DNA of 64,000 bases, taken from NCBI GenBank assembly GCA_963790025.1, contig CAWBMP010000004.1:192001-256000 (forward strand), given 5' to 3'. Below the pieces are notes generated by a model, which saw nothing but the letters and a program-made list of their open reading frames with translations, had not been told where the DNA came from and searched no databases. Positions within the stretch are counted from its first letter, which is position 1. Every line of letters begins with the position of its first letter. Positions 10,340 to 57,917 of this stretch are shown piece by piece. This DNA is from Nitrospirota bacterium. GTDB taxonomy: Bacteria > Nitrospirota > Thermodesulfovibrionia > Thermodesulfovibrionales > Dissulfurispiraceae. Position numbers and translations under genes: made by a program.

Positions 10340-11515
10340 TTAGAGGTACACGATATCGTCCGCCAGATTTGTCAGTTTTTGGCATCCTTTGTCCGTTATT
10401 GCCAGGGTGTTCTCTATGCCTACAGCCCCCTTGCCGGGGAACAGGAATTTAGGTTCAACGGCAATTGTCTGCCCTGCCTGAATAAGGGCCTTGAACTTCG
10501 GCGCAAGGACAGGCAGTTCATCCAGTTCGAGCCCGACCCCGTGCCCTACGAACTTTGCCAGTTCGCCGGGATGGCCCATAAAATGTTCTCCTAGCCCTGC
10601 ATCAGCCGCCATCTTTGCTGCACGATGGAATAGATCTTCGCAAATATTTCCGGGCGTGAGTTTCTCTTTTACCAATTCCTGTATGTCAAGAGAGATACCA
10701 AAAGCCCGTTCAAGCTCGGGGATGAGGCCGCCAAAACAGAAAATACGAGTCATATCAGCAATATACCCATTGTAAAATCCCCCATAGTCTACAACGATAG
10801 GGACCCCTTTTCGAATGACGTCTGTTGAAGGTCCGTAGGGCGCCGCGGTCCATTGCCCTTTGCCGGAAACAGGACCGTCAAAACAGCCGGCTACTGCAGC
10901 GTTCACGCCCGAAGACGCAATCCCTGTTATCTCCTGGTTGAAGCCGCGAATACGGAGATATCCACCAATGCCGGCTTTTCGCAGGCAATATTCAAATTCT
11001 GCGGCAAGGTCAAGCTCCCGCATCCCGGGAATAAGAAAGTCAGGTATCTTGTTGAATGCTCCGGCGAGCATACTGCCGCTCATCCGCATCTGCTCAAGTT
11101 CCCAGGCCGATTTCACTGACCTCAATTCCCGGTTGATTCCAGAGATATCCACAAACTCATAATCCCGAAGAATATTACGGAAAAAGTTAAAATGTTGCAA
11201 AGGGAGCACATCAAAGGTGAGGCCGATCTTTCTTATGCCCTTCCCGAGAATATCAGGCAGGTCCTTGCTTGAAGGGAACGGCCGAACGTCTTCCACATTG
11301 CTCTCCCCTATGCTGCGGATGAAGCTCTTTCTCACAAGCAGGGCAGGAACGCCGTCTATCGGTATCCATAAAACGGCATTCTGCCTGGAACCACTGAAAT
11401 AGAAGACGTCGACTGCATAATTGAAGAGGGCCCCGTCAAGCCCTTCGGCTGAAAGCCTTTTCTTGAGGTTCTCTATCCTCTGACTTATCTCTTCTTTCGG
11501 AGTTGTCGTATTCAT
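10340..11515 (-). CDS. Xaa-Pro peptidase family (M24) protein
   Basis: RSVKS, GYIADMTR, GHGVGLELDE, AVEP, GIEN. Confidence 0.9.
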   Translation of the reverse strand: MNTTTPKEEISQRIENLKKRLSAEGLDGALFNYAVDVFYFSGSRQNAVLWIPIDGVPALLVRKSFIRSIGESNVEDVRPFPSSKDLPDILGKGIRKIGLTFDVLPLQHFNFFRNILRDYEFVDISGINRELRSVKSAWELEQMRMSGSMLAGAFNKIPDFLIPGMRELDLAAEFEYCLRKAGIGGYLRIRGFNQEITGIASSGVNAAVAGCFDGPVSGKGQWTAAPYGPSTDVIRKGVPIVVDYGGFYNGYIADMTRIFCFGGLIPELERAFGISLDIQELVKEKLTPGNICEDLFHRAAKMAADAGLGEHFMGHPGELAKFVGHGVGLELDELPVLAPKFKALIQAGQTIAVEPKFLFPGKGAVGIENTLAITDKGCQKLTNLADDIVYL

Positions 11516-13197
11516 TGAAGCGGCGGTCTCCTGCGAAGTGCCTGATCGAGCTGGTCGTCCCTTTCGTATATGTCATTCCTGAACTGAAGAATACCCTCCT
11601 CATCAACCCAGGCTGTAAGATAAAGAAAATGTACATTTATCGGGTGAGAAATCAGGACGGTTTTCTCTGTAACATTCTGTAAAGCAGCCAATAATTTTTC
11701 CTGAGTCCACCGGGGATCGTCCCGCAACAGATACTCTGCCAGCTCGATAGGTTTTTCAATCCGGGTGCAACCGTGACTGAATGTACGTACATTCGCCGAA
11801 AACAGCTGTTTGGCCGGAGTGTCGTGGAGGTAAACATCGAATTGATTGGGAAACATAAATTTAATACGGCCAAGGGGGTTCAGTAGGCCGGGCTCCTGGC
11901 GGAACCTGTATATCAGATTTGTTTCGGTGATCTTCGGCCAGTTTACTGTCCCCGGGGATATTACATCTTCGCGGTGTCCCCAGCCCCTTAACACCTTGAT
12001 CTTTTGCTCAATAAGATAACTGGGATCGTGTTTGATCTTTTTCAGTATCTCTTTCCGTGCTATGCTGTCCGGAATGTTCCACGCAGGATTTAAAATGAGG
12101 GAAGTCATCTTTGCACTAAAAATTGGGGTGCGCTGGTAACGCTTCCCAACCACTACTTTCATGGAGAGAATTGACTTTCCGTTTTCGATGACATCAAGTT
12201 GAAAATTCGCGATATTGACAAAGATCAACCGCTGGTCCGCATTTCCCTGTATCCAGCGCAGTCTTTCCATATTCAATTCCATTTGTCGTATCCGTTGCTT
12301 TAACGGAACGTTGAGTGCATCGAGAGTAACGGGTCCTACAGCACCGTCGGGGTCAAGCCCGTGGCGTTTCTGGAATAAGATTACCGACTGCTGGAGTTTC
12401 TCATCAAACCGGTCGCTTCCGTTCGTCTCACTAGTCTCCGAATCACCTGAAGCGGCAAGCCTTTTTCTCAGTTCAACAACCCTGTCCGACATGGAACCCT
12501 TTTTCAGGACCGGACCATTTGAAACAAGCGGCCACGGACCCTTTGTTGAAAGTTCCCTGTACAGCGCGAGGGCCTTTTTGAGCCTGTTATACGAGCCACG
12601 CGTCGGGCGGAGCCTAATCAGGGCCTCTCTTATCTGCTTTTTTGCAAGTGCCTGGGCCAGGACAGAGGCAACATCCACATTTGCACGTTTTGCAAACCAT
12701 TCCGTTTCAATAGTCACAGGATCCACGCAACCGCCCGACAGGTGACAACCGAGAGAGAGAAATGTATCCGTGAGGAGTATATCAAGATCGCCCAGTAATG
12801 CCGGGTCGGCAAATAACGCGCTCTCTGCCTTAGCGACAAGAGATTTAATGGCTGAAAGATGATAATAATCAGGAGTGAGACCATCACCGTAGGCTTCCTC
12901 CACGGCCTTAATGAGTGTATCTACCTGCATCAGATAACCATTTTGGCTCCATGCAGGCTCGTAGTTTCTTGTCTTATAGAAGCTTTGGATTAGAACGGCA
13001 GCGTATATTTGCTCGCCCTCGATTACTATTTTTGAGGGGGCCTTCCAGTTGGTCACCCTATTTTTTATCAGCAGTCCGAGTTCTTGATCCGGTACCTGCA
13101 CATTCGAATCGCTTGCCGACAAAACATTGTGAGGGCGAAAAAAAACAACTATTAGAAGTAGAACAATAATTCCCTTACCTATCCGTAAAGTTTGCAT
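11512..13197 (-). CDS. L,D-transpeptidase, YcbB/LdtD type, with peptidoglycan-binding domain
   Basis: Signal peptide; FQKRHGLDPDG; YLHDTP...SHGC catalytic motif. Confidence 0.92.
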   Translation of the reverse strand: MQTLRIGKGIIVLLLIVVFFRPHNVLSASDSNVQVPDQELGLLIKNRVTNWKAPSKIVIEGEQIYAAVLIQSFYKTRNYEPAWSQNGYLMQVDTLIKAVEEAYGDGLTPDYYHLSAIKSLVAKAESALFADPALLGDLDILLTDTFLSLGCHLSGGCVDPVTIETEWFAKRANVDVASVLAQALAKKQIREALIRLRPTRGSYNRLKKALALYRELSTKGPWPLVSNGPVLKKGSMSDRVVELRKRLAASGDSETSETNGSDRFDEKLQQSVILFQKRHGLDPDGAVGPVTLDALNVPLKQRIRQMELNMERLRWIQGNADQRLIFVNIANFQLDVIENGKSILSMKVVVGKRYQRTPIFSAKMTSLILNPAWNIPDSIARKEILKKIKHDPSYLIEQKIKVLRGWGHREDVISPGTVNWPKITETNLIYRFRQEPGLLNPLGRIKFMFPNQFDVYLHDTPAKQLFSANVRTFSHGCTRIEKPIELAEYLLRDDPRWTQEKLLAALQNVTEKTVLISHPINVHFLYLTAWVDEEGILQFRNDIYERDDQLDQALRRRPPLQ

Positions 13198-13828: not shown

Positions 13829-13993
13829 ATGGTTAAAGCGAAGGACGACGTTAAGAGAGAAAGTTACTCAGTGAGATTGAATCCTGATTTGATACAAAAG
13901 GTAAAGCACATCGCGGTCGATGAAAAGAAAACCGTAAGCCGGGTAATTGAAGAAGGGATAGCCTTACTTCTCAAAAGTAAAAAGGCAGAATAA
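13829..13993 (+). CDS. Ribbon-helix-helix DNA-binding protein (54 aa, below the ORF-track cutoff)
   Basis: GGAGG RBS; MVKAKDDVKRESYSVRLNPDLIQKVKHIAVDEKKTVSRVIEEGIALLLKSKKAE. Confidence 0.8.
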   Translation: MVKAKDDVKRESYSVRLNPDLIQKVKHIAVDEKKTVSRVIEEGIALLLKSKKAE

Positions 13994-14010
13994 GCTCGGA
14001 GGTTGGCCTT

Positions 14011-14340
14011 ATGGGGATGGAAGCAGGCGGCTGGATTGAAAAAAGAATTAATCCCAGGATACCTGCATCAGGTGAAGTATTGTTCAGGGCACATTGGATA
14101 TCCGACTTTTACGGAAGCAATCTCTCTTTAAGCACATACTTACATGCCGACCTGATAGACACGAGCATCGATGGTATGCGCATAAAGACATCTTTCCCCC
14201 TAAACAAAAAAGACGTGTTGGAACGCGTCTCGCAATATACCGATTCTCTTAGACAGACAGAACTGGTGAAATGGGTGGAAAAAATAGATGATTGCTATTG
14301 CGCAGGCCTCCAGTCTGTGCGTGAATTGAGCAAGCTGTGA
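14011..14340 (+). CDS. PilZ-domain protein
   Basis: RxxxR (RINPR) and DxSxxG (DTSIDG) motifs; stop codon lies inside the MITE end. Confidence 0.7.
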   Translation: MGMEAGGWIEKRINPRIPASGEVLFRAHWISDFYGSNLSLSTYLHADLIDTSIDGMRIKTSFPLNKKDVLERVSQYTDSLRQTELVKWVEKIDDCYCAGLQSVRELSKL

Positions 14341-14498
14341 ATCGGCATCGAATATTGACCCGGCATCGGCGTCGAATTGTGACCCGCATATCGTAAATAT
14401 AACAGCCAGAATAACAAGCAGTTAATGGATATAGAAGCGGGTCAAGTTTGAATGCCGATATAGCTTAAAAGTGGGTCAAATGGCTGTGCCAATTCACA
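14336..14498. mobile_element. 163-bp MITE with IS21-type ends, copy 1
   Basis: TGTGAATCGGCA...TGCCAATTCACA termini; internal TGACCC/GGGTCA repeats; 3 mismatches to 16999-17161. Confidence 0.8.
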
Positions 14499-14753
14499 AA
14501 AAAGGCCATAAAGGCAGTAGAGGAAGTGACAGGCGTACTTTGGGATGAGATAAGCTCCCGAAGCAGGAGCAAGGAAGTAATATTTGCGCGAGGATTATTA
14601 GTTGGGGTATGGAGAGAGGCGGGGCATCGGATAGTGAACTTACAGCCCCAACTGAGGAGGGACTTATCAGTGCTTTCAAGATTGTCAAAAATCGCAGAGA
14701 GTGAAAGAGGACGAAAAGCCATGAAACAAATATTTCACATGCTAAATGCATGA
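14499..14753 (+). pseudogene. C-terminal fragment of a REP-associated tyrosine transposase (RAYT-like, DnaA-C-like HTH tail)
   Basis: EISSRSRSKEVIFARGL...RRDLSVLSR tail; begins abruptly at the MITE end; followed by GCAAGCCTGA(CCCC) motif. Confidence 0.55.
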
Positions 14754-14797
14754 ACGCAAGCCTGAACATCCCGCTGGAATTTTCAATATATTTTTTC

Positions 14798-15997
14798 TTA
14801 TTTAGATAAGATGTACCCTCTGTTCTCCTTCAGCATCTTGAAAATAACACGGCAAAGATGACGACCAAGCGCACGTAGTGCCTGGTTATGTTTCTTGCCT
14901 TCAGCTCTTTTTTTCTCATAATATTGTTGAGACTGCGGAACTTGTTTTCGGTGCCGATCTACGGCAACCATCATTGCGGCCTTAGCCCGAGTATTAACCT
15001 GCGTTGGTGGTTTTGATCCTTTTTGCTTGCCTGAACTATTGTCAAGATTCGCCATCCCAATATACAGAGCCAGACTTGCTTCGCTGCCAAAGCGCTCGAT
15101 AGTTCCAATCTCTCCGGCGAGTTCAGATGTACAAATGGAACCGAATCCTGGAATGGTTGCGAGCGTTTGCGCAATATCCGAGCCGTGTGCAACACCCTCC
15201 ATCTTTGCTTCAAGTGATTTTATCTTGGCATGGAGTTCCATCACGCGGATTGCATCTTCCTGGATCATTTCACCGACCCACTCGACGTCGTGACTAAACT
15301 GTGCTGTTTTCTGCCATTCAACAATAACAGAGGCATATTTCTTACCAATGCCCGGGATCTTGCGGATAGTTGTTTCCCGCATGCGTGCAAGCGTGCGAAG
15401 GTCATCCGTGCTGGTCAGAAATCCAAGAAACCACATATTGTCGGCCTCACCGGTAATCTCCAGAAGTCCCGGACATACAGCGTGAAGATCGGCCTGTAGG
15501 TTGTTTACTACCCGTACTCGCTCATCGACCAAACGACGCCGGCGCCGTGATAGCCGCTTTAGAATGTCGTTGTCCCGCGGCGTTTTGCGTACCTCCTGCA
15601 GCACATCCTTGGCTATCGGCAGATGATCTCGAAGCTGAAAAAGCTCCAGTCCTTTCCTTGCGTCGATTGCATCGGTCTTCGCGGCACCGGGGAATATCTC
15701 CTTGAATCGAGCAAGCTTGAGATTGTTGATATTGAAGAGGCGATAATTGCGGGCTCGAACGAGCGTGTCCAGCGGACGTGCGTAGCCGTTGAAGCCCTCC
15801 ATTGCTACGGCAACGGGACAACTAAACCTTTGCTCCTGCTTCTCGATGCGACAGAAGAATTGCCGGAACCCTTCAGGTTCATGCACGATTGAGAATTCAT
15901 CGAGGACTTCACCGCTGGATAGGCCGATTGCAACGTTGTGACTGCGGCAGCCAATATCGACGCTTACACGCAGTTCGAGGGGATCATCTTTTTTCAT
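14798..15997 (-). CDS. IS110-family recombinase/transposase
   Basis: DEDD domain (VSVDIG, AMEG, KTDAIDA); TIPGFG; SSG catalytic-serine motif; YYEKKRAEGK. Confidence 0.95.
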   Translation of the reverse strand: MKKDDPLELRVSVDIGCRSHNVAIGLSSGEVLDEFSIVHEPEGFRQFFCRIEKQEQRFSCPVAVAMEGFNGYARPLDTLVRARNYRLFNINNLKLARFKEIFPGAAKTDAIDARKGLELFQLRDHLPIAKDVLQEVRKTPRDNDILKRLSRRRRRLVDERVRVVNNLQADLHAVCPGLLEITGEADNMWFLGFLTSTDDLRTLARMRETTIRKIPGIGKKYASVIVEWQKTAQFSHDVEWVGEMIQEDAIRVMELHAKIKSLEAKMEGVAHGSDIAQTLATIPGFGSICTSELAGEIGTIERFGSEASLALYIGMANLDNSSGKQKGSKPPTQVNTRAKAAMMVAVDRHRKQVPQSQQYYEKKRAEGKKHNQALRALGRHLCRVIFKMLKENRGYILSK

Positions 15998-16020
15998 GTA
16001 GTCTCCTTTGCAGACAAGAT

Positions 16021-16215
16021 TATCATCCTCAGGTCTCGTCTACTTACAGAGCCACATTTGGCACCATCCCGGTCGACCCTTTTGAGGATGATGCAGATGA
16101 CGGAGGCGGCATTTCAGACTCAAGTGAGCCTGAATGAACAGGCCACTGACCCCACAAGCCACACCCCCGTTAAGCATATCTTACATGAATAAAGCTGCCA
16201 TAGTCATCTGCATAA
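16021..16215 (-). ncRNA. Putative IS110 bridge RNA in the left non-coding end
   Basis: Two stem/internal-loop/stem domains whose loops match the target (TGGGGTC, GAGTCTGA) and the donor (CGGGATG, GTAGA); ends approximate. Confidence 0.8.
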
Positions 16216-16315
16216 ATCCTATGGTAGACCCCATTGTTTCCTTATTCTGAACTATTCGGAATTATAGCAGAATGCCATTTGAACAACTACAACAAGTAAT
16301 CTGAAATTATAGTCA

Positions 16316-16597
16316 CTACTTCGTTGCACCATGCAATTCTTCATCTACCTTCTCAGTCAGGAACATTTTCAGGAGCGATTGGTAAGGAACATCTCTCTTG
16401 TTCGCGAGCACCTTAAGATGCTCAATAAGCGATTCAGGCAGACGAATCGAGATTGTCTTAGTAGATGGCTTTAAGTTCGGAAAAGCGACCCGCTTTGCCT
16501 TTGTATAGTCAATGTACTCAGTAGAATCATGAGTCGCCCAAAAATTGACTTCTTCTGCTTCGCTTTTAAACTTCGGTATCTTCTTGAATTTGCTCAT
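16316..16597 (-). CDS. brnA: BrnA/CopG-like antitoxin
   Basis: IPKFKSEAEE..FW.THD; TISIRLP...LK..A....VPYQSL. Confidence 0.85.
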   Translation of the reverse strand: MSKFKKIPKFKSEAEEVNFWATHDSTEYIDYTKAKRVAFPNLKPSTKTISIRLPESLIEHLKVLANKRDVPYQSLLKMFLTEKVDEELHGATK

Positions 16598-16889
16598 ATA
16601 CTCTTCTCTCCCTGCGGTTCATATCACGCGCCGAAATTATTCTTATCTTGGCTCCCCTCACTGTAAAAACAATGAAAAGTAATCTTCCGGTATCCGTTCT
16701 CCCTAAAACAAAGTATCGGTCTTCACCAATTGAATGTGACGCATCTTTCTTTACGATAATCGGATCGTTAAAGAATATCTCTTCGCATTCAACATGAGAG
16801 ACCCGATGTTTCTCCCAATTCTTCTTGATATTGCCCTCGTCCCATTCAAACCCTTCGAGTGAACCCAATATGTCGGACCAATCTTTCAT
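16566..16889 (-). CDS. brnT: BrnT-family ribonuclease toxin
   Basis: FEWDEGN..KN..KH.V; IRIISAR; overlaps the antitoxin gene. Confidence 0.9.
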   Translation of the reverse strand: MKDWSDILGSLEGFEWDEGNIKKNWEKHRVSHVECEEIFFNDPIIVKKDASHSIGEDRYFVLGRTDTGRLLFIVFTVRGAKIRIISARDMNRRERRVYEQIQEDTEV

Positions 16890-16902
16890 ATAGTATATTA
16901 TC

Positions 16903-16931
16903 AATATATACAAATAAGTTTTCCTTGTCAA
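16903..16931 (-). promoter_or_regulatory. sigma70 promoter of the brnTA operon
   Basis: TTGACA-N17-TATATT just upstream of the brnT ATG. Confidence 0.65.
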
Positions 16932-16998
16932 TTCTGTTACTCCTTATTTGCGACACCTGAAGATTTGAATCATAAAATATAGTCATGCAAACCCCGGC

Positions 16999-17161
16999 TG
17001 TGAATCGGCATCGAATATTGACCCGGCATCGGCGTCGAATTGTGACCCGCATATCGTAAATATAACAGCCAGAATAACAAGCAGTTAATGGATATAGAAG
17101 CGGGTCAACTTTGAATGCCGGTATAGCTTAAAAGTGGGTCAAATGGCTGTGCCGATTCACA
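16999..17161. mobile_element. 163-bp MITE with IS21-type ends, copy 2
   Basis: Perfect 12-bp TIR TGTGAATCGGCA/TGCCGATTCACA; same orientation as copy 1. Confidence 0.8.
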
Positions 17162-17317
17162 ATCGGCCACTGTGATCAAACAATTTCTAATCGTAATCTA
17201 CTTTACAACTGTCTATCAATGGAAGCTTACGATATGGTATCTAAGTTAATCCAGGAATGAATCTGAACTGACGCAATAATAATCGTGTATAATAATTTCA
17301 TGCCGAAGGGAAAAAGT

Positions 17318-17809
17318 ATGTACGAAGAACTGCTGACAGTTCTAAACCGCCAGAAGGTTAGATATTTAGTTGTCGGCGGAGTGGCTGTGAATTTGTATGG
17401 GATTGAGAGGATGACGGGCGATTTCGATATTATCATTGAAATGTCTCCGGCTAACTTAGAGAGGTTCTTGGATGCTGCTCAACTGCTTAAGCTAAAGCCC
17501 TCCATCCCGGTTAAGTACAAGGATATCACCCTCGAATCGATAGCTAAGTGGCGTCGGGAGAAGGACATGATCGCACTTCGTTTAATCCATTCCCAAAACC
17601 AGATGCTTATTCTTGACCTTGTGTTCGACGATACGGTTTCGTTTGAGGAGGCCTTCAGCCTACGAGAAACATTTCGTATCGGGCACATCTCGTTTCCTGT
17701 TATGTCTATCAACGACCTTATTAAGATGAAACAGGGAGTGGCAAGAGAACAGGATATCGCGGACGTCTATCATCTGAAACGCCGAAGGGATGTTGATAGT
17801 GACAGGTAA
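17318..17809 (+). CDS. Nucleotidyltransferase-fold protein (AbiEii/DUF6036-like)
   Basis: YLVVGGVAV..YG..R.T.DFD; LIKMK....R..D..D. Confidence 0.75.
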   Translation: MYEELLTVLNRQKVRYLVVGGVAVNLYGIERMTGDFDIIIEMSPANLERFLDAAQLLKLKPSIPVKYKDITLESIAKWRREKDMIALRLIHSQNQMLILDLVFDDTVSFEEAFSLRETFRIGHISFPVMSINDLIKMKQGVAREQDIADVYHLKRRRDVDSDR

Positions 17810-18290: not shown

Positions 18291-18362
<72 letters not shown>

Positions 18363-23319: not shown

Positions 23320-25455
23320 GTGATGGGAAAGTCTTCCAATAAAAAGAAAAAAACTGAAGCGGTGTCCCGCATCGGAAGAGACAGCAAGGTATCATCAAAT
23401 GAGCAACACAGAGATGTCTCCCGATGCGATGGGAACATAATAAAATACAGCAATGTCAGATATGGTATTGCCTCGGCTGTTTCGCTAATAACCTTTATCG
23501 TCTATCTTTCCTCTCTGCATAATGAGTTTGTATCGTGGGATGACAACCATTATGTTTACGAAAACCCGCATATTCATTCATTGAATGCAGACTTTTTCAG
23601 GTGGGCATTTTCCGAATTCTATGCTGGAAACTGGCATCCGCTAACCTGGGTATCCCATGCACTGGATTATGCCGTATGGGGATTGAATCCCCTGGGGCAC
23701 CATCTGACCAATAATATTCTGCATGCTGTCAACACCTTTGTTGTAGTAATACTTGCAACAACACTTTTAGAGGCATGGAAGAGGAAGGCGGAAAAAAGTG
23801 GTCAAAAGATTTTTTTCAATGCGCAGGCGATTCTTATTGCCGGTGGGATAACAGGGTTATTATTCGGCCTTCATCCTGTGCATGTGGAATCAGTGGCATG
23901 GGTTTCCGAAAGAAAAGATCTCTTATGCGCCCTATTTTACTTACTGGCAATTGTTCAGTATGCCAAATACGCTAATATCGGGGGTGCCGAAACAATTCAA
24001 GAGAATTCCAAAACACGCTTTCTGAACAAATATTACCTCCTCGTCCTGGCGTTTTTTGTTCTTGCTCTGTTAAGCAAGCCGATGGCGGTCAGTCTTCCTG
24101 CAGTTCTGCTCATATTAGACTGGTATCCATTTCAAAGAATCCGGTCTATAAAATCGTTTATGTCTGCATTTGTCGAGAAAATGCCGCTTATCGTATTAAG
24201 TATCATCTCTTCAATACTGACAGTTCTGGCACAAAAGGCAGGAGGGGCAATACAATCCACTGAGATAATACCATTTTCATCGCGGGTTTCTGTGGCTGCT
24301 GAATCCCTCCTGGGTTACCTTTTGAAAATGGCATTGCCTGTGAATATGGTCCCGTTTTATCCATATCCTGAGAATGTTTCGCCGTTTTCGGCAGGGTATC
24401 TTTTATCGATCGTTCTTGTGCTTGGGATTACAGCGACCTGCATTGTCATGTCAAAAAGACAGAAGTTATGGTTATCAGTCTGGGGCTACTATGTTATCAC
24501 CCTGGTCCCTGTCCTCGGAATCGTTCAGGTGGGAAGCCAGTCAATGGCAGACAGGTATACTTATTTGCCGAGTCTTGGCCCATTCCTTTTGGCAGGTTTG
24601 CTTTCTGCATGGTGCATTGAAAAGACAAATATTCGGCGGAAGCAAGCCCAGATCGTTAAGCTTATTGGCGGCATTGCAGCCATTTTGGTATCAGTTTGCC
24701 TTTCATTTATAACTTTTAGGCAAGTGGCGATATGGAAAGACAGCGTCACCCTGTGGACTTACGTTATCGAGAAAGAACCAAATGCCCCTGTAGCACATAA
24801 CAATCTCGGCCTTATCTATCAAAATCAAAATATGCCTGATGAGGCCGAAAAGGAATTTCTGACTGCTCTCAAACTAAAACCGGATTACGCTCTGGCACAC
24901 AATAATCTCGGACTCGTCTATAAAACCCACAACATGCTTGACAAGGCGATGGAGCAATATCTAATCGCCACTAAGCTGAAGCCTGACGACGCTGAGGCGC
25001 ATAGCAATCTTGGCATCTCATATCAAGCCTGCAATATGCCTGATAAGGCTGAAGAAGAATTTCTGACTGCCGTTAAACTAAAACCCGATGATGCTGCGCT
25101 CCACTTCAATCTCGGCCTCTTTTATAAATCACGCAATATGCCTGACAAGGCTATGGAGCACTATGCGATTGCCATTAAACTAAAACCCGATTTAGCAGAA
25201 GCGCATAATAATCTTGGCGGCATTTATCTGGTCCTCAAGATGCCCGATAAGGCCGAACAAGAATTTCAGACTGCTCTTATATTAAAGCCAGATTTGGCGG
25301 AAGCGCATTATAGTCTTGGTTTTGCGTACTACAATACGGGACAGATGGAAAAGGCGCAAAGGGAATTAGCCAGAGGATTAGAAATAAAGCCGACTAACCA
25401 ACAGGCTCAGCAATTGTTAAAAATAATAACAGAATATCTGAAAGCAAAAGATTAA
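23320..25455 (+). CDS. TMTC-like membrane glycosyltransferase (GT-C) with C-terminal TPR repeats
   Basis: FVSWDD, WHPLTW.S, HPVHVESVAWVSERKD, MADRYTYLP; repeated AHNNLG TPR units. Confidence 0.85.
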   Translation: MMGKSSNKKKKTEAVSRIGRDSKVSSNEQHRDVSRCDGNIIKYSNVRYGIASAVSLITFIVYLSSLHNEFVSWDDNHYVYENPHIHSLNADFFRWAFSEFYAGNWHPLTWVSHALDYAVWGLNPLGHHLTNNILHAVNTFVVVILATTLLEAWKRKAEKSGQKIFFNAQAILIAGGITGLLFGLHPVHVESVAWVSERKDLLCALFYLLAIVQYAKYANIGGAETIQENSKTRFLNKYYLLVLAFFVLALLSKPMAVSLPAVLLILDWYPFQRIRSIKSFMSAFVEKMPLIVLSIISSILTVLAQKAGGAIQSTEIIPFSSRVSVAAESLLGYLLKMALPVNMVPFYPYPENVSPFSAGYLLSIVLVLGITATCIVMSKRQKLWLSVWGYYVITLVPVLGIVQVGSQSMADRYTYLPSLGPFLLAGLLSAWCIEKTNIRRKQAQIVKLIGGIAAILVSVCLSFITFRQVAIWKDSVTLWTYVIEKEPNAPVAHNNLGLIYQNQNMPDEAEKEFLTALKLKPDYALAHNNLGLVYKTHNMLDKAMEQYLIATKLKPDDAEAHSNLGISYQACNMPDKAEEEFLTAVKLKPDDAALHFNLGLFYKSRNMPDKAMEHYAIAIKLKPDLAEAHNNLGGIYLVLKMPDKAEQEFQTALILKPDLAEAHYSLGFAYYNTGQMEKAQRELARGLEIKPTNQQAQQLLKIITEYLKAKD

Positions 25456-54360: not shown

Positions 54361-55938
54361 CTAAGCCGCATCAACAAATTCCCTGGCAGCTTCAATCACT
54401 TCAGCATCAATTTCGATCTTGTTCGAAGCCGAAAAAAATGCAGCGAGGAGATTCAGAAAAAGAAGGACGCCCATTACAGCGAAGAAACCATGCATAAAAG
54501 CATTCGTCTTTACCGGAACAGGAATGATCGAGTTGCTTAACACATGTTGAACGCTCGGATATCCGTTTTCGGACAGGTACCGGTGCTCCAGAGTGGTGAA
54601 TATGACGCCGGATATATCGACCCCTAATATCAGACCCAGGGACCGCATCATGTTCAGGACGCCTCCGGCAACGCCCAGTTTCTCTTTCGGCGCTGAACCC
54701 ATGATCGAGCTGTTGTTCGGCGGGGTGAACAATCCCATGCCAACTCCGAGGAGTATCAACACTGCCACAAGGAGCGGTAGTTGCGCAGAAGCCCCCATCA
54801 ACATGAGGGCAAAGCAGGCAAGGGCGGAAATAAGCATCCCGGACGTGGTCATTATTCTCGGGCCGTGTTTATCCGAAATATGCCCGGCGAATGGGGCTAC
54901 TGCAGCCATAGCGAGAGGGACGGGTGTTAACAAAGAGCCGGTAAGGGCAACGCTGCATCCCAATATATGCTGAAGATAAAATGGCATCAGAAACATGACC
55001 GCAAACAGGACGTAATAGGAGAGCATGCCTGTCAGGTTTCCAAAAAAGAAGGCGGCATTCCTGAAAAGCTTGAGGTCTATCAAAGGGTGCTCAACCTTCA
55101 ACTCCGTGATAATAAAAAGGGTCAGCAGAAGTGTGCCGGACAGAAAGTACGTCATAATGGTATTTGAGCTCCAACCCAATTTTACTCCCTCATTGAAAGC
55201 CAGCACAATAAAAGCGAGACCGGATGCAAAGAAGGCCGTTCCGATATAATCGACTTTTTCCTTTTTTTCCTTTTTTTCATCGGGCGGCAGGATAAAAAGA
55301 GCGGCCAGGGTGCCCGCTATGCCGATGGGGATATTAATATAGAAGATGGCCCTCCAGCCTACAGTGGCTATAAGAATCCCCCCGACAAACGGACCTACCG
55401 ACATCGATATCGCCTGTACGGCACCCTGGATCCCGATTGCCTTGCCTCTCTCATTCGCCGGGAAAGCATGCGTAATCAAAGCGACAGAATTTGCCTGTAA
55501 TAGCCCGGCCCCTATGGCCTGAATTATGCGGGAAATTATCATGAAGGAAGCTGTGGATGACATCCCGCAAAGTACCGAACCCACGGAAAAGACCACAAAG
55601 CCGATATTATAAAGCTTCGATCTGCCGTAAATATCAGCGAGTCTACCGAATAGCGGGAGAAAAATGGTCAGAGTGAGCATATATGCCATTGCTATCCACT
55701 CGATAACCGCCATCGAGACACCAAAGGTGTGCTGGAGGGTCGGCATAGCTACGTTGACGATGCTTACGTCAAGGGCAGACATTGTGGCTCCAAGAAGAAC
55801 GGTGGAAAGAATGAACCACTTCCATCCCGGATGTGATGAAAAGCGAGGATGAGGAGACTGTAGCCTAATCATTTTTGACGACTCCTTTTCTAAAAATTTC
55901 TTTAGTGATCTAAAAGATCCTTTTTGCCTGACTTGCAT
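54361..55938 (-). CDS. DHA2 (EmrB/QacA-like) MFS transporter, copy 1
   Basis: LDVSIVNVAMP, GRLADIYGR, ERGKAIG, GPFVGG; start may be 55872. Confidence 0.92.
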   Translation of the reverse strand: MQVRQKGSFRSLKKFLEKESSKMIRLQSPHPRFSSHPGWKWFILSTVLLGATMSALDVSIVNVAMPTLQHTFGVSMAVIEWIAMAYMLTLTIFLPLFGRLADIYGRSKLYNIGFVVFSVGSVLCGMSSTASFMIISRIIQAIGAGLLQANSVALITHAFPANERGKAIGIQGAVQAISMSVGPFVGGILIATVGWRAIFYINIPIGIAGTLAALFILPPDEKKEKKEKVDYIGTAFFASGLAFIVLAFNEGVKLGWSSNTIMTYFLSGTLLLTLFIITELKVEHPLIDLKLFRNAAFFFGNLTGMLSYYVLFAVMFLMPFYLQHILGCSVALTGSLLTPVPLAMAAVAPFAGHISDKHGPRIMTTSGMLISALACFALMLMGASAQLPLLVAVLILLGVGMGLFTPPNNSSIMGSAPKEKLGVAGGVLNMMRSLGLILGVDISGVIFTTLEHRYLSENGYPSVQHVLSNSIIPVPVKTNAFMHGFFAVMGVLLFLNLLAAFFSASNKIEIDAEVIEAAREFVDAA

Positions 55939-55988
55939 TGGTCAATTCCTGTTTTCAGTGACTGAATAACCCCGGACAGAAAGATTTT

Positions 55989-57791
55989 TTAAAAAAATGT
56001 CAGACTCAATAGCTCAATATCAGCCTCTTTTTCAGTGATTGGACCCCGGACAGAGAGCTTTTTCATGACCGGATCATTTTTTCCGGCATCAGGCCCCAGG
56101 ACTATTTTTTCGTGCCCGGTCGTATAACGGGCTGTGGCCGCGTCAGCTTCATGAGCAATAAAATTGCCGCTCACCGACCGGAAGGAGGCAAAAGAAAAGA
56201 CGATGACTGTAAAGAGGAGGAGAATGACAAATAAAGCCATCCCCCTGACCTCCCGGCTGAAGCCATTAAAGAATCCGGAAGAAACAACCGCTGTCCCAGT
56301 CGCCTGATGATCTATAATTGCCGATGTTTTGACTTTTCTGACAGACGAAAGGAACGCCGATAGAACAGTAACAGCCATAAGTACCATAATTACCATGATG
56401 AAGCCGTGCATAAAGGCGTTGGCTTTAACATGCATTGGAATGCTGCTGTTACTGAATACATTTTGAACATTCATATATCCTTTTTCAACCAGATAGCGGT
56501 GCTCCAGAGTAGAAAATATAACACCTGATATGTTCACACCGAATATAAGGCCCAGAGACCGCGTCATGTTCAGGACACCTCCGGCAACTCCCAATTTCTC
56601 ACTCGGAGCTGAGCCCATTATCGCACTATTGTTGGGCGCAATGAACAGTCCCATGCCGACTCCGAGGGAGATTAACGCAACCACTATTGCCGGCAGCCGC
56701 GCAGCCTCACCTAAAAACAAGAGTGAAAAACACGCCATGGCGGAGACGAGCATGCCGGAGGTGGTCATTATCCTCGCACCGTACTTGTCCGAGACATGTC
56801 CCGACAATGGGGCTGCTGCCGCCATGGCAAGGAGAAGGGGCGTCAGCAGAGAGCCGGTGAGCGCAACGCTATAGCCCAACACCTTTTCGAAATAAAAAGG
56901 CATAAGGAACATGATTGCAAACAACACATAATAAGACAGCATGCCGGTGAGGTTCCCTAACAGGAAGGTCGCATTTTTGAAGAGCTTGAGGTCTATCAGG
57001 GGACGCTCAACCTTCAACTCTGCAACGATAAAAAAAGTCAGCAAAACGATACCGGACAGGAAATAGGTTATGACGGTGCCTGAACCCCACCCAAGTCTCA
57101 TTCCTTTGTTGAAAGCCAGCAAAATCAGAGCAAGCCCTGATGCGAAAAATGCTGCTCCAAAATAATCAATCTTTTTCTCCTCTTTCGTCTTCCGGTCAGG
57201 AGGAAGCATGAACAAGGCAGCCAGTATGCCTAAAACGCCAATCGGGACATTCATATAAAAAATAGCCCTCCAGCCTACAGTGACTATAAGGACGCCCCCG
57301 ACAAATGGCCCCACGGCCATCGCTATCGCCTGCACTGCACCCTGAATGCCTATTGCCTTACCCCGCTCTCCTGTGGGAAACGCACCGGTAATGAGAGCGA
57401 CTGAGTTCGCCTGGAGAAGTCCCGCTCCTATGGCCTGCACTACGCGGGATACTATCAAGAAATTAGCTGTGTTTGACATCCCGCAAAGAAGCGAACCCGC
57501 CGAAAAAACAACAAACCCGCTATTATAAAGCTTCGATCTGCCGTATACGTCCGCTAACCTGCCAAACAGCGGAAGCAAGACCGTTAACGAAAGCATATAT
57601 GCCATCGATATCCACTCGATTACTGCCAAAGAGACGCCGAAGTTACTACTCAATGTCGGCATCGCAACGTTGACAATGCTTACGTCCAGCGCAGACATTG
57701 TGGCCCCGATCAAAACAGTGGTAAGAATAAACCACTTGCGGGCCGGATGCAGGGAAAGGTTGGCTCGTAAAATTTGTAACTCAGCATTCAT
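55989..57791 (-). CDS. DHA2 MFS transporter, copy 2, with C-terminal extension
   Basis: Close paralog of 54361-55938; extra hydrophobic segment and tail. Confidence 0.9.
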   Translation of the reverse strand: MNAELQILRANLSLHPARKWFILTTVLIGATMSALDVSIVNVAMPTLSSNFGVSLAVIEWISMAYMLSLTVLLPLFGRLADVYGRSKLYNSGFVVFSAGSLLCGMSNTANFLIVSRVVQAIGAGLLQANSVALITGAFPTGERGKAIGIQGAVQAIAMAVGPFVGGVLIVTVGWRAIFYMNVPIGVLGILAALFMLPPDRKTKEEKKIDYFGAAFFASGLALILLAFNKGMRLGWGSGTVITYFLSGIVLLTFFIVAELKVERPLIDLKLFKNATFLLGNLTGMLSYYVLFAIMFLMPFYFEKVLGYSVALTGSLLTPLLLAMAAAAPLSGHVSDKYGARIMTTSGMLVSAMACFSLLFLGEAARLPAIVVALISLGVGMGLFIAPNNSAIMGSAPSEKLGVAGGVLNMTRSLGLIFGVNISGVIFSTLEHRYLVEKGYMNVQNVFSNSSIPMHVKANAFMHGFIMVIMVLMAVTVLSAFLSSVRKVKTSAIIDHQATGTAVVSSGFFNGFSREVRGMALFVILLLFTVIVFSFASFRSVSGNFIAHEADAATARYTTGHEKIVLGPDAGKNDPVMKKLSVRGPITEKEADIELLSLTFF

Positions 57792-57917
57792 GTTTGTTTC
57801 ACCTCTCATGCAGTAACAAAGTTTAATTTCTCTCACTTCTTCCCATTTTTCAGAATCGTAATGATGAAGCGGTCCCTTTTTTTATAGTTTCCTTATTTAT
57901 GAGTCTATTGAGCATTT

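Follow-up and report, generated by a model that had tools for sequence, protein, structure and literature searches.

An IS110-group insertion sequence with a TC core and a putative bridge RNA in a Nitrospirota genome contig

Bridge RNAs have been predicted in 85.7% of IS110 elements, and according to the same source the RNA is located in the left end of elements of the IS110 group and in the right end of those of the IS1111 group, which share the DEDD/Tnp recombinase family and whose element-encoded RNA also reads the target and the ends (PMC11208160). For IS621 of Escherichia coli, the literature describes a core that is included in all four pairings (PMC11208160), a promoter reconstituted across the junction of the right and left ends (PMC11208160, PMC13626964) and half-match insertions (10.64898/2026.08.31.748434); handshake dinucleotides are described for bridge recombination (PMC13626964). 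Here, we analyzed a stretch of 64,000 nucleotides (the window) from contig CAWBMP010000004.1 of a Nitrospirota bacterium (GCA_963790025.1, positions 192,001 to 256,000), which contains an IS110-family insertion sequence (IS) on the minus strand at 14764-16228. Judged from its sequence and from its relatives, this is very probably a complete IS110-group insertion sequence moving by bridge-RNA-guided recombination. The kind of system is already known; new is a further member of the group from a divergent, little-studied clade.

The element comprises 1,463 bp when one TC core is counted and consists of a left non-coding end of 229 nt, an open reading frame (ORF) for a recombinase of 399 amino acids (14798..15997, minus strand) and a right non-coding end of 32 nt following the stop codon (14766..14797). 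All coordinates of the element given below refer to the minus strand. The left junction reads AATGGGG-TC-TACCAT (16236..16221) and the right junction CGGGATGT-TC-AGGCTTG (14773..14757). The only sequence common to both junctions is TC, one copy of which lies at 16227..16228 and the other at 14764..14765. An earlier reading made from the letters alone (the sequence-only reading) had proposed these ends, and every string and coordinate it gave was recovered in the window. The element has a long left end and a short right one and lacks long terminal inverted repeats, a layout shared by its relatives, and it resides at an intergenic spot inside a toxin-antitoxin islet. As in IS621 and ISCro4 (PDB 8wt6-8wt9, 9t56; PMC11208160, PMC13626964), the putative bridge RNA lies in the left end, where the target-binding loop precedes the donor-binding loop, the core has 2 nt, a promoter would be rebuilt across the right-end/left-end junction, the right end is short, and the protein comprises a RuvC-like DEDD, a helical and a Tnp(Ser) domain. 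Unlike their core, which is CT, that of the window element is TC. Within the 64-kb window neither a second copy of the element nor a solo RNA was found, and the rebuilt 16-nt target matched elsewhere in the window just once, with 3 mismatches, which is chance level (41 of 100 shuffles).

Homologues of the recombinase number in the thousands, of which the best 120 are 71-90% identical and almost all metagenomic. An alignment of 16 protein sequences (A1) was used for a profile scan of genome contigs and yielded 80 related loci with 57-91% identity (cited by L numbers), the closest relative found being 90-91% identical. The metagenome-assembled genomes (MAGs) carrying these loci are labeled Nitrospirota, Thermodesulfovibrionales, Syntrophaceae, Binatia, Nitrospira, Methylococcales, Geminicoccaceae and others. 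Nucleotide similarity of the relatives to the window element begins and ends within a few bases of the proposed ends, which are shared by the 80 loci. There is hardly any variation in the right end, which reads ...GCGGGATGT before TC, and the left end starts with TC-TACCAT in 40 and with TC-TATCAT in 5 of 46 unique left ends. Between the copies of multi-copy genomes (L009/L010/L015; L044-46; twelve Methylococcales copies), similarity is lost immediately beyond the proposed ends. The boundaries are therefore empirical and not derived from the reading of the guides. Conservation of the target beyond the guides was considered on account of a longer similarity of some right flanks and dropped, as the flank logos carried no information outside a stretch of about -7 to +7 relative to the core. 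Among PLSDB plasmids, 950 records matched the recombinase, all with less than 60% identity (25-28% among the 12 matches listed), and no named close relative was found among them. Five peptide words of the recombinase were not matched in the part of the supplementary data of Durrant et al. that was covered, by which absence is not shown. At the locus of the closest relative (L001:1118-1253), an inverted fragment of 136 nt from a related element's recombinase gene (87.5% identical) adjoins the copy, which suggests that this copy inserted into or beside an older one.

Folded as RNA, the left end (15998-16228) reached -84.6 kcal/mol (RNAfold, z = -3.33), and none of 200 shuffled sequences folded as well. 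For comparative analysis, 43 non-redundant left ends out of 47 were aligned (A2); those of L048, L056, L057 and L080 were excluded, which are 277-298 nt long and carry inserts. RNAalifold predicted the stems of the target and donor loops on A2, with compensatory changes in 17 of 42 pairs. The structure that was scored comprised six helices built by ourselves, in which the guide segments were left unpaired. It placed 95.5% of 1,671 cells in standard pairs, compared to 36-47% when the 3′ partners were slid by 1-3 columns. Changes on both sides occurred in 22 of 39 pairs, and none of 500 shuffles reached any of five measures. The left end encodes a structured RNA with two internal loops, whose stems covary across the relatives.

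The gene of the putative bridge RNA probably extends over 16022..16213 and comprises a closing stem, the target-binding loop and the donor-binding loop. Its 5′ and 3′ limits were deduced from the folding. In the closing stem, AUGCAGAUGAC (16203..16213) pairs with GUCAUCUGCAU (16091..16101). The 11 bp of this stem, as drawn in the sequence-only reading, are the maximum possible in the window; the stem conserved in the family has just 6-7 bp (GCAGRU/AYCUGC), because the inner GAC/GUC competes with a conserved extension of the target-loop closing stem. Five of the six closing-stem pairs that were scored showed compensatory changes, and 82.9% of the cells were paired, a value reduced because the L018 group is shifted by one column. 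For the target-loop closing stem (16158..16171 with 16099..16110; 12 pairs, six compensatory, 99% of the cells paired) the contiguous GTGGC/GCCGC stem drawn before had to be given up. Paired G-to-A and C-to-U changes fit only a register composed of GGC/GCC, a 2-nt bulge and a 9-bp stem, which is therefore favored. The inner stem-loop of the target loop, AGUGGCCUG ... CAGGCUCACU (16123..16147), contains one bulge (eight pairs, seven compensatory, 95% paired). The donor loop is bounded by an almost invariant outer stem of AUCAUCCUCA (16083..16092) and UGAGGAUGAU (16022..16031; six pairs, one compensatory, 99.6% paired) and carries an inner hairpin GCCA/UGGC (16051..16062; three pairs, one compensatory, 99.2% paired), which is longer in many relatives. 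The stems named in the sequence-only reading appeared in the minimum free energy or centroid structure of RNAfold. What that reading had missed is a further conserved stem within the donor domain, GGUC (16078..16075) with GACC (16035..16032), which has two compensatory changes in four pairs and 95.3% of its cells paired. This stem and an extra three-way junction located 5′ of the target loop set the RNA apart from IS621 and ISCro4.

The four guide segments lie exactly where they had been placed, namely TGGGGTC at 16154..16148, GAGTCTGA at 16121..16114, CGGGATG at 16071..16065 and GTAGA at 16043..16039. The left target guide UGGGGUC is identical to the left flank plus core. The right target guide GAGUCUGA pairs with the core and right flank TCAGGCTT through six Watson-Crick and two G-U/G-T pairs. 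Its complement, TCAGACT, differs from the site of the element, TCAGGCT, by one U-G pair at position 5, whereas L001 has the same guide and a site TCAGACT, a 7-nt Watson-Crick match. With this U-G pair, the site occupied by the window copy is near-cognate.

Across the relatives, the right target guide covaries with the right flank. The 13 nt preceding the conserved AAUGCC were compared to the core and right flank in 65 pairs (60 unique, 37 distinct guides) and scored at positions 5-10, positions 1-4 (TCAG) being almost constant. The guides formed on average 2.67 Watson-Crick pairs with their own flanks and 1.81 with shuffled ones. With wobble pairs allowed the values were 3.60 and 2.98. In neither case did any of 10,000 shuffles give as high a value, and the effect persisted when each distinct guide was counted once. 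At least seven contiguous pairs from the core were present in 26 of the 60 unique insertions, where 7.8 were expected and 16 was the maximum in 5,000 shuffles; a further 16 insertions had five to six. Natural reprogramming is exemplified by L044-46, in which the guide complement is TCAGAGTAAGT and the flank TCAGAGTAAG or TCAGAGTAAT, as well as by L059 (TCACAAG), L058 (TCATA) and a Nitrospira set (TCAGGCA). The left target guide is nearly fixed: it occurs in 19 variants, most loci having TGGGGTC. Over positions 3-8 of a 10-nt segment in 60 unique guide-flank pairs, identity to the own left flank amounted to 4.38 as opposed to 4.05 after shuffling (none of 5,000 shuffles as high). Informative left guides are those of L080 (CTCTGTC in guide and flank), L042 (AGCGGTC), L041 (GGTGTC), L023 (CGGGGTC), L063 (AAGGGGTC) and of four Geminicoccaceae copies, whose guide TTTGGGTC fits their flanks TT(C/T)GGGTC.

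Some multi-copy genomes merit separate mention. L051, L053, L054 and L055 are identical to one another and come from one Geminicoccaceae MAG; all four have left flanks in agreement with the left guide. On the right, the match between guide and flank is confined to TCAA in three of the four. These natural insertions resemble "half-match" events. One Methylococcales MAG harbors twelve copies (L062, L064-L066, L068-L075), and seven of the eleven with a readable right flank reside in the same host repeat (...GGTGTC-AGTCAT[T/C]G...), where the guides match only in part.

The donor guides agree with the ends of the element. The right donor guide GUAGA (16039..16043) is complementary to the core and left end TCTAC. 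In A2 it reads AUAGA in all six left ends that read TCTATCAT (L006, L007, L012, L013, L024 and L043) and GUAGA in the 37 others. The left donor guide CGGGAUG (16065..16071) is, as claimed before, identical to the right end at 14773..14767; guide and end are both near-invariant, which leaves no room for covariation. The core lies within the pairing of the left target, right target and right donor guides. Unlike in IS621, the match of the left donor guide falls 1 nt short of the core, and after the G/T mismatch only the first core base could pair. A handshake was also looked for. An IS621-like dinucleotide was rejected, as in each loop just one base fits (A after UGA, C after GUAGA) and a second one does not; in L014, L020 and L032, where the right end has A or G at -1, the RNA showed no corresponding change. 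Read by eye, the T before the core in the right end might be a partner of the invariant A after UGA, and the invariant G at this place in targets a partner of the invariant C after GUAGA. Such pairing would be possible in both cases only after exchange of the top strands and might weakly hint at a one-base analogue of the handshake, i.e., one possible post-exchange base per loop instead of the dinucleotide of IS621.

The recombinase contains the Pfam domains DEDD_Tnp_IS110 (PF01548, residues 12-176, E 7e-21) and Transposase_20 (PF02371, residues 277-361, E 1e-16). Residues D14, E67, D109, D112 and S322 are invariant in the 16 homologues of A1. The 16-sequence profile matched IS621 (8wt6) with an E-value of 8.5e-6, aligning window residues 251-391 to chain residues 168-314. 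S322 came to stand opposite the Ser of the IS621 motif YESG, which we take to be the catalytic S241 of IS621, and in a weaker stretch KTDAIDAR stood opposite KTDTVDAR. An AlphaFold2 model (predicted local distance difference test 82.2, predicted template modeling score 0.65) displayed an N-terminal β-α domain and a C-terminal domain made of helices, as well as long helices spanning 141-174 and 238-270. The loop containing the Ser (318-332) had low confidence. The ten best Foldseek matches of the model in the PDB were all chains of ISCro4 (9t56) or IS621 (8wt6, 8wt9), with E-values of 1e-10 to 2e-9, template modeling scores of 0.66-0.72 on the target and an identity of 15-16% in the structural alignment. 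The next matches were Nop5/Nop56-type proteins and TIGR-TasR, a connection also named in 10.1101/2024.06.21.599552. With 399 amino acids, the protein exceeds the 328- and 341-residue PDB chains of IS621 and ISCro4 and possesses approximately 80 extra residues before residue 251. The larger size noted in the sequence-only reading is thus real, though ordinary for the family. That the enzyme is intact, as also claimed, is suggested by the open frame and the invariant DEDD and Ser residues.

A consensus scan upstream of the RNA on the minus strand disclosed no sigma-70-like promoter in the integrated state, in which the hexamer at the -35 position is CAGAAT. When the ends are joined, TTGAAA of the right end (14781..14786) and TACCAT at the terminus of the left end (16221..16226) are separated by 17 nt including one core. 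Both hexamers are conserved in the relatives; in 51 unique right ends the fixed -35 position is occupied by TTGAAA in 35 cases and by TTGCAA in another 7. Together the two hexamers form a putative sigma-70 promoter that is rebuilt only across the right-end/left-end circle junction and would start the RNA close to the closing stem; TACCAT, its candidate -10 hexamer, in addition makes up the right-donor half-site together with the core. A perfect DnaA-box word (TTATCCACA) was present upstream of the gene in 22 of the 80 relatives, the window element being devoid of such a box. In 21 of the 22 carriers (L031, L051, L053-L055, L058, L059, L062, L064-L066, L068-L075, L077 and L078) it resides within an insert of about 110-150 nt between the left-end terminus with the junction promoter and the closing stem; in L004 it lies in the upstream flank. 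This module could couple expression to DnaA or to the replication state of the host.

By analogy with IS621 (PMC11208160, PMC13626964), the element would excise as a circle, whose joined ends would switch on expression of the RNA and the recombinase. A recombinase tetramer would hold both loops of the RNA, one of them bound to the circle junction and the other to a genomic site (T)GGGG-TC-AGNCT. Strand exchange would take place at the TC core, S322 acting as the nucleophile and D14, E67, D109 and D112 forming the metal site.

Several observations weigh against bridge-RNA-guided movement. Eighteen of the 60 unique insertions have at most four contiguous right-guide pairs (L003, L004, L007, L013, L028, L032, L034, L037, L040, L051, L053, L054, L056, L064, L066, L069, L071 and L079). 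These include three Geminicoccaceae copies with well-matched left halves, and they are compatible with half-match insertions as reported for IS621, or could be due to later changes of the flanks. Owing to the strong conservation of the left guide, only a few lineages contribute to its covariation, and the 7-nt match of the left donor guide breaks off 1 nt ahead of the core, where RNA G-U-G faces DNA T-T-C. Rfam 15 gave no match on 14500-16500 (E-value mode), hence no curated family covers the RNA, and phmmer with the single protein found nothing in the PDB at E <= 0.001. The link to IS621 is made only by the profile, over the C-terminal part, and by the predicted fold. Finally, recent activity cannot be judged from a single copy in the 64-kb window. 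This last point touches on the possibility that element and bridge RNA are of the right kind and the copy itself is a dormant or dead fossil, whose guides match since it has not moved after insertion. Besides the single copy, the lack of a sigma-70-like promoter upstream of the integrated RNA, the imperfect, near-cognate site and the distance to the closest relative found (90-91% identity) speak for dormancy. However, the ORF is of full length with all catalytic residues, the six RNA helices and four guides are all intact, both junction-promoter hexamers match the family consensus, and weak expression in the integrated state is the normal condition reported for IS621 (PMC13626964). We thus regard a fossil as unlikely.

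The left end might also be a mere structured 5′ leader that controls translation or stability of the transposase, its guide matches being coincidences or terminal repeats. The position of the RNA directly upstream of the ORF and its ribosome-binding site would suit a leader, and so would the frequency of some matches when the 231-nt left end was shuffled 100,000 times at the mononucleotide level: the 5-nt right donor partner occurred 73,714 times and the 8-nt wobble-tolerant right target partner 14,488 times. The left target and left donor 7-mers were rarer (2,005 and 1,785 shuffles, respectively), and all four matches came together in one shuffle. Individually, GTAGA and the wobble-rich right guide say little; the set of four is informative, and the covariation in the family far more so. 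The guides vary in step with the flanks of insertions that arose independently in other genomes, and also with the left end of the element itself, none of which a leader predicts. They are situated in internal loops between covarying stems, as in IS621 (PMC11208160). A leader is thus highly improbable. The sequence-only reading had called the architecture IS621-type, and this was borne out by three independent family-wide tests, i.e., covariation of the RNA pairs, of guides with flanks and of guides with ends. Its further claim of programmability draws on a single line of support, the natural reprogramming apparent from the sequences of L044-46, L059 and L080. There remains the assignment to the IS1111 group (seekRNA-type elements), which has the same protein superfamily in its favor. 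In that group the RNA is found downstream of the gene for the recombinase, within a long right end, and long sub-terminal inverted repeats are present. The window element has its covarying structured RNA upstream of the gene in the 229-nt left end and a right end of just 32 nt, an anatomy that refutes this assignment and leaves it next to no probability. We therefore maintain that the element belongs to the IS110 group and very probably moves by means of its bridge RNA.

The element is inserted in a small toxin-antitoxin islet (window 13829-17809), which encodes a ribbon-helix-helix protein (13829-13993) and a 109-amino-acid ORF without family (14011-14340), both on the plus strand, a CopG/BrnA-like antitoxin (16316-16597) and a BrnT-like toxin (16566-16931) on the minus strand, and a DUF6036/AbiEii-like nucleotidyltransferase (17285-17809, plus strand). 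The islet is flanked by a YkuD L,D-transpeptidase gene (11512-13197) on one side and by tRNA-Val (18291-18362) and a Mur ligase gene on the other. Two direct repeats of 166 nt that are 98% identical (14334-14499 and 16997-17162) bracket the insertion sequence and the BrnT/BrnA pair, a unit of approximately 1.2 kb when the insertion sequence is disregarded. They have 12-bp terminal inverted repeats (TGTGAATCGGCA / TGCCGATTCACA) and fold as single-stranded DNA into a long imperfect hairpin (-32 kcal/mol, z -4.9). The repeat looks like a miniature inverted-repeat transposable element or a cassette-boundary repeat; as a target of the insertion sequence it was rejected. Two repetitive regions were encountered farther away. 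At 24788-25195, at least three tandem units of 102 nt (65-72% identical) lie inside an ORF of 711 amino acids (23320-25455) for a repeat-containing protein. At 54361-57836, two adjacent minus-strand ORFs (525 and 615 amino acids) share DNA stretches with 71-82% identity at a spacing of 1,916 nt and look like tandem paralogues.

Biologically, the element is an ordinary insertion sequence. It is conceivable, though we would put it forward tentatively and at less than even chance, that it belongs to a deep uncharacterized clade of bridge recombinases spread across environmental Nitrospirota, Desulfobacterota-like, Binatia, Methylococcales and other MAGs, whose rules differ from those of IS621 in the TC core, in a left half-site nearly fixed as GGGGTC, natural reprogramming being concentrated on the right guide, in a left donor guide that leaves out the core and in a single-base handshake. 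To our knowledge, only few orthologues of bridge recombinases have been characterized (IS621, IS622, ISCro4). Such enzymes are sought as compact programmable tools for genome rearrangement, and the clade described here is distant in sequence, yet its RNA can be read directly. For annotation, the ends, target site and core of elements of this type can be called from sequence alone. The relatives constitute a natural reprogramming series with 37 distinct right guides and their insertion sites, which is suited for screening orthologues and for testing how general core identity, coverage of the core by the donor guide, length of the handshake and tolerance of half-sites are. If the differences are functional, the clade would provide a second set of design rules for bridge editing.

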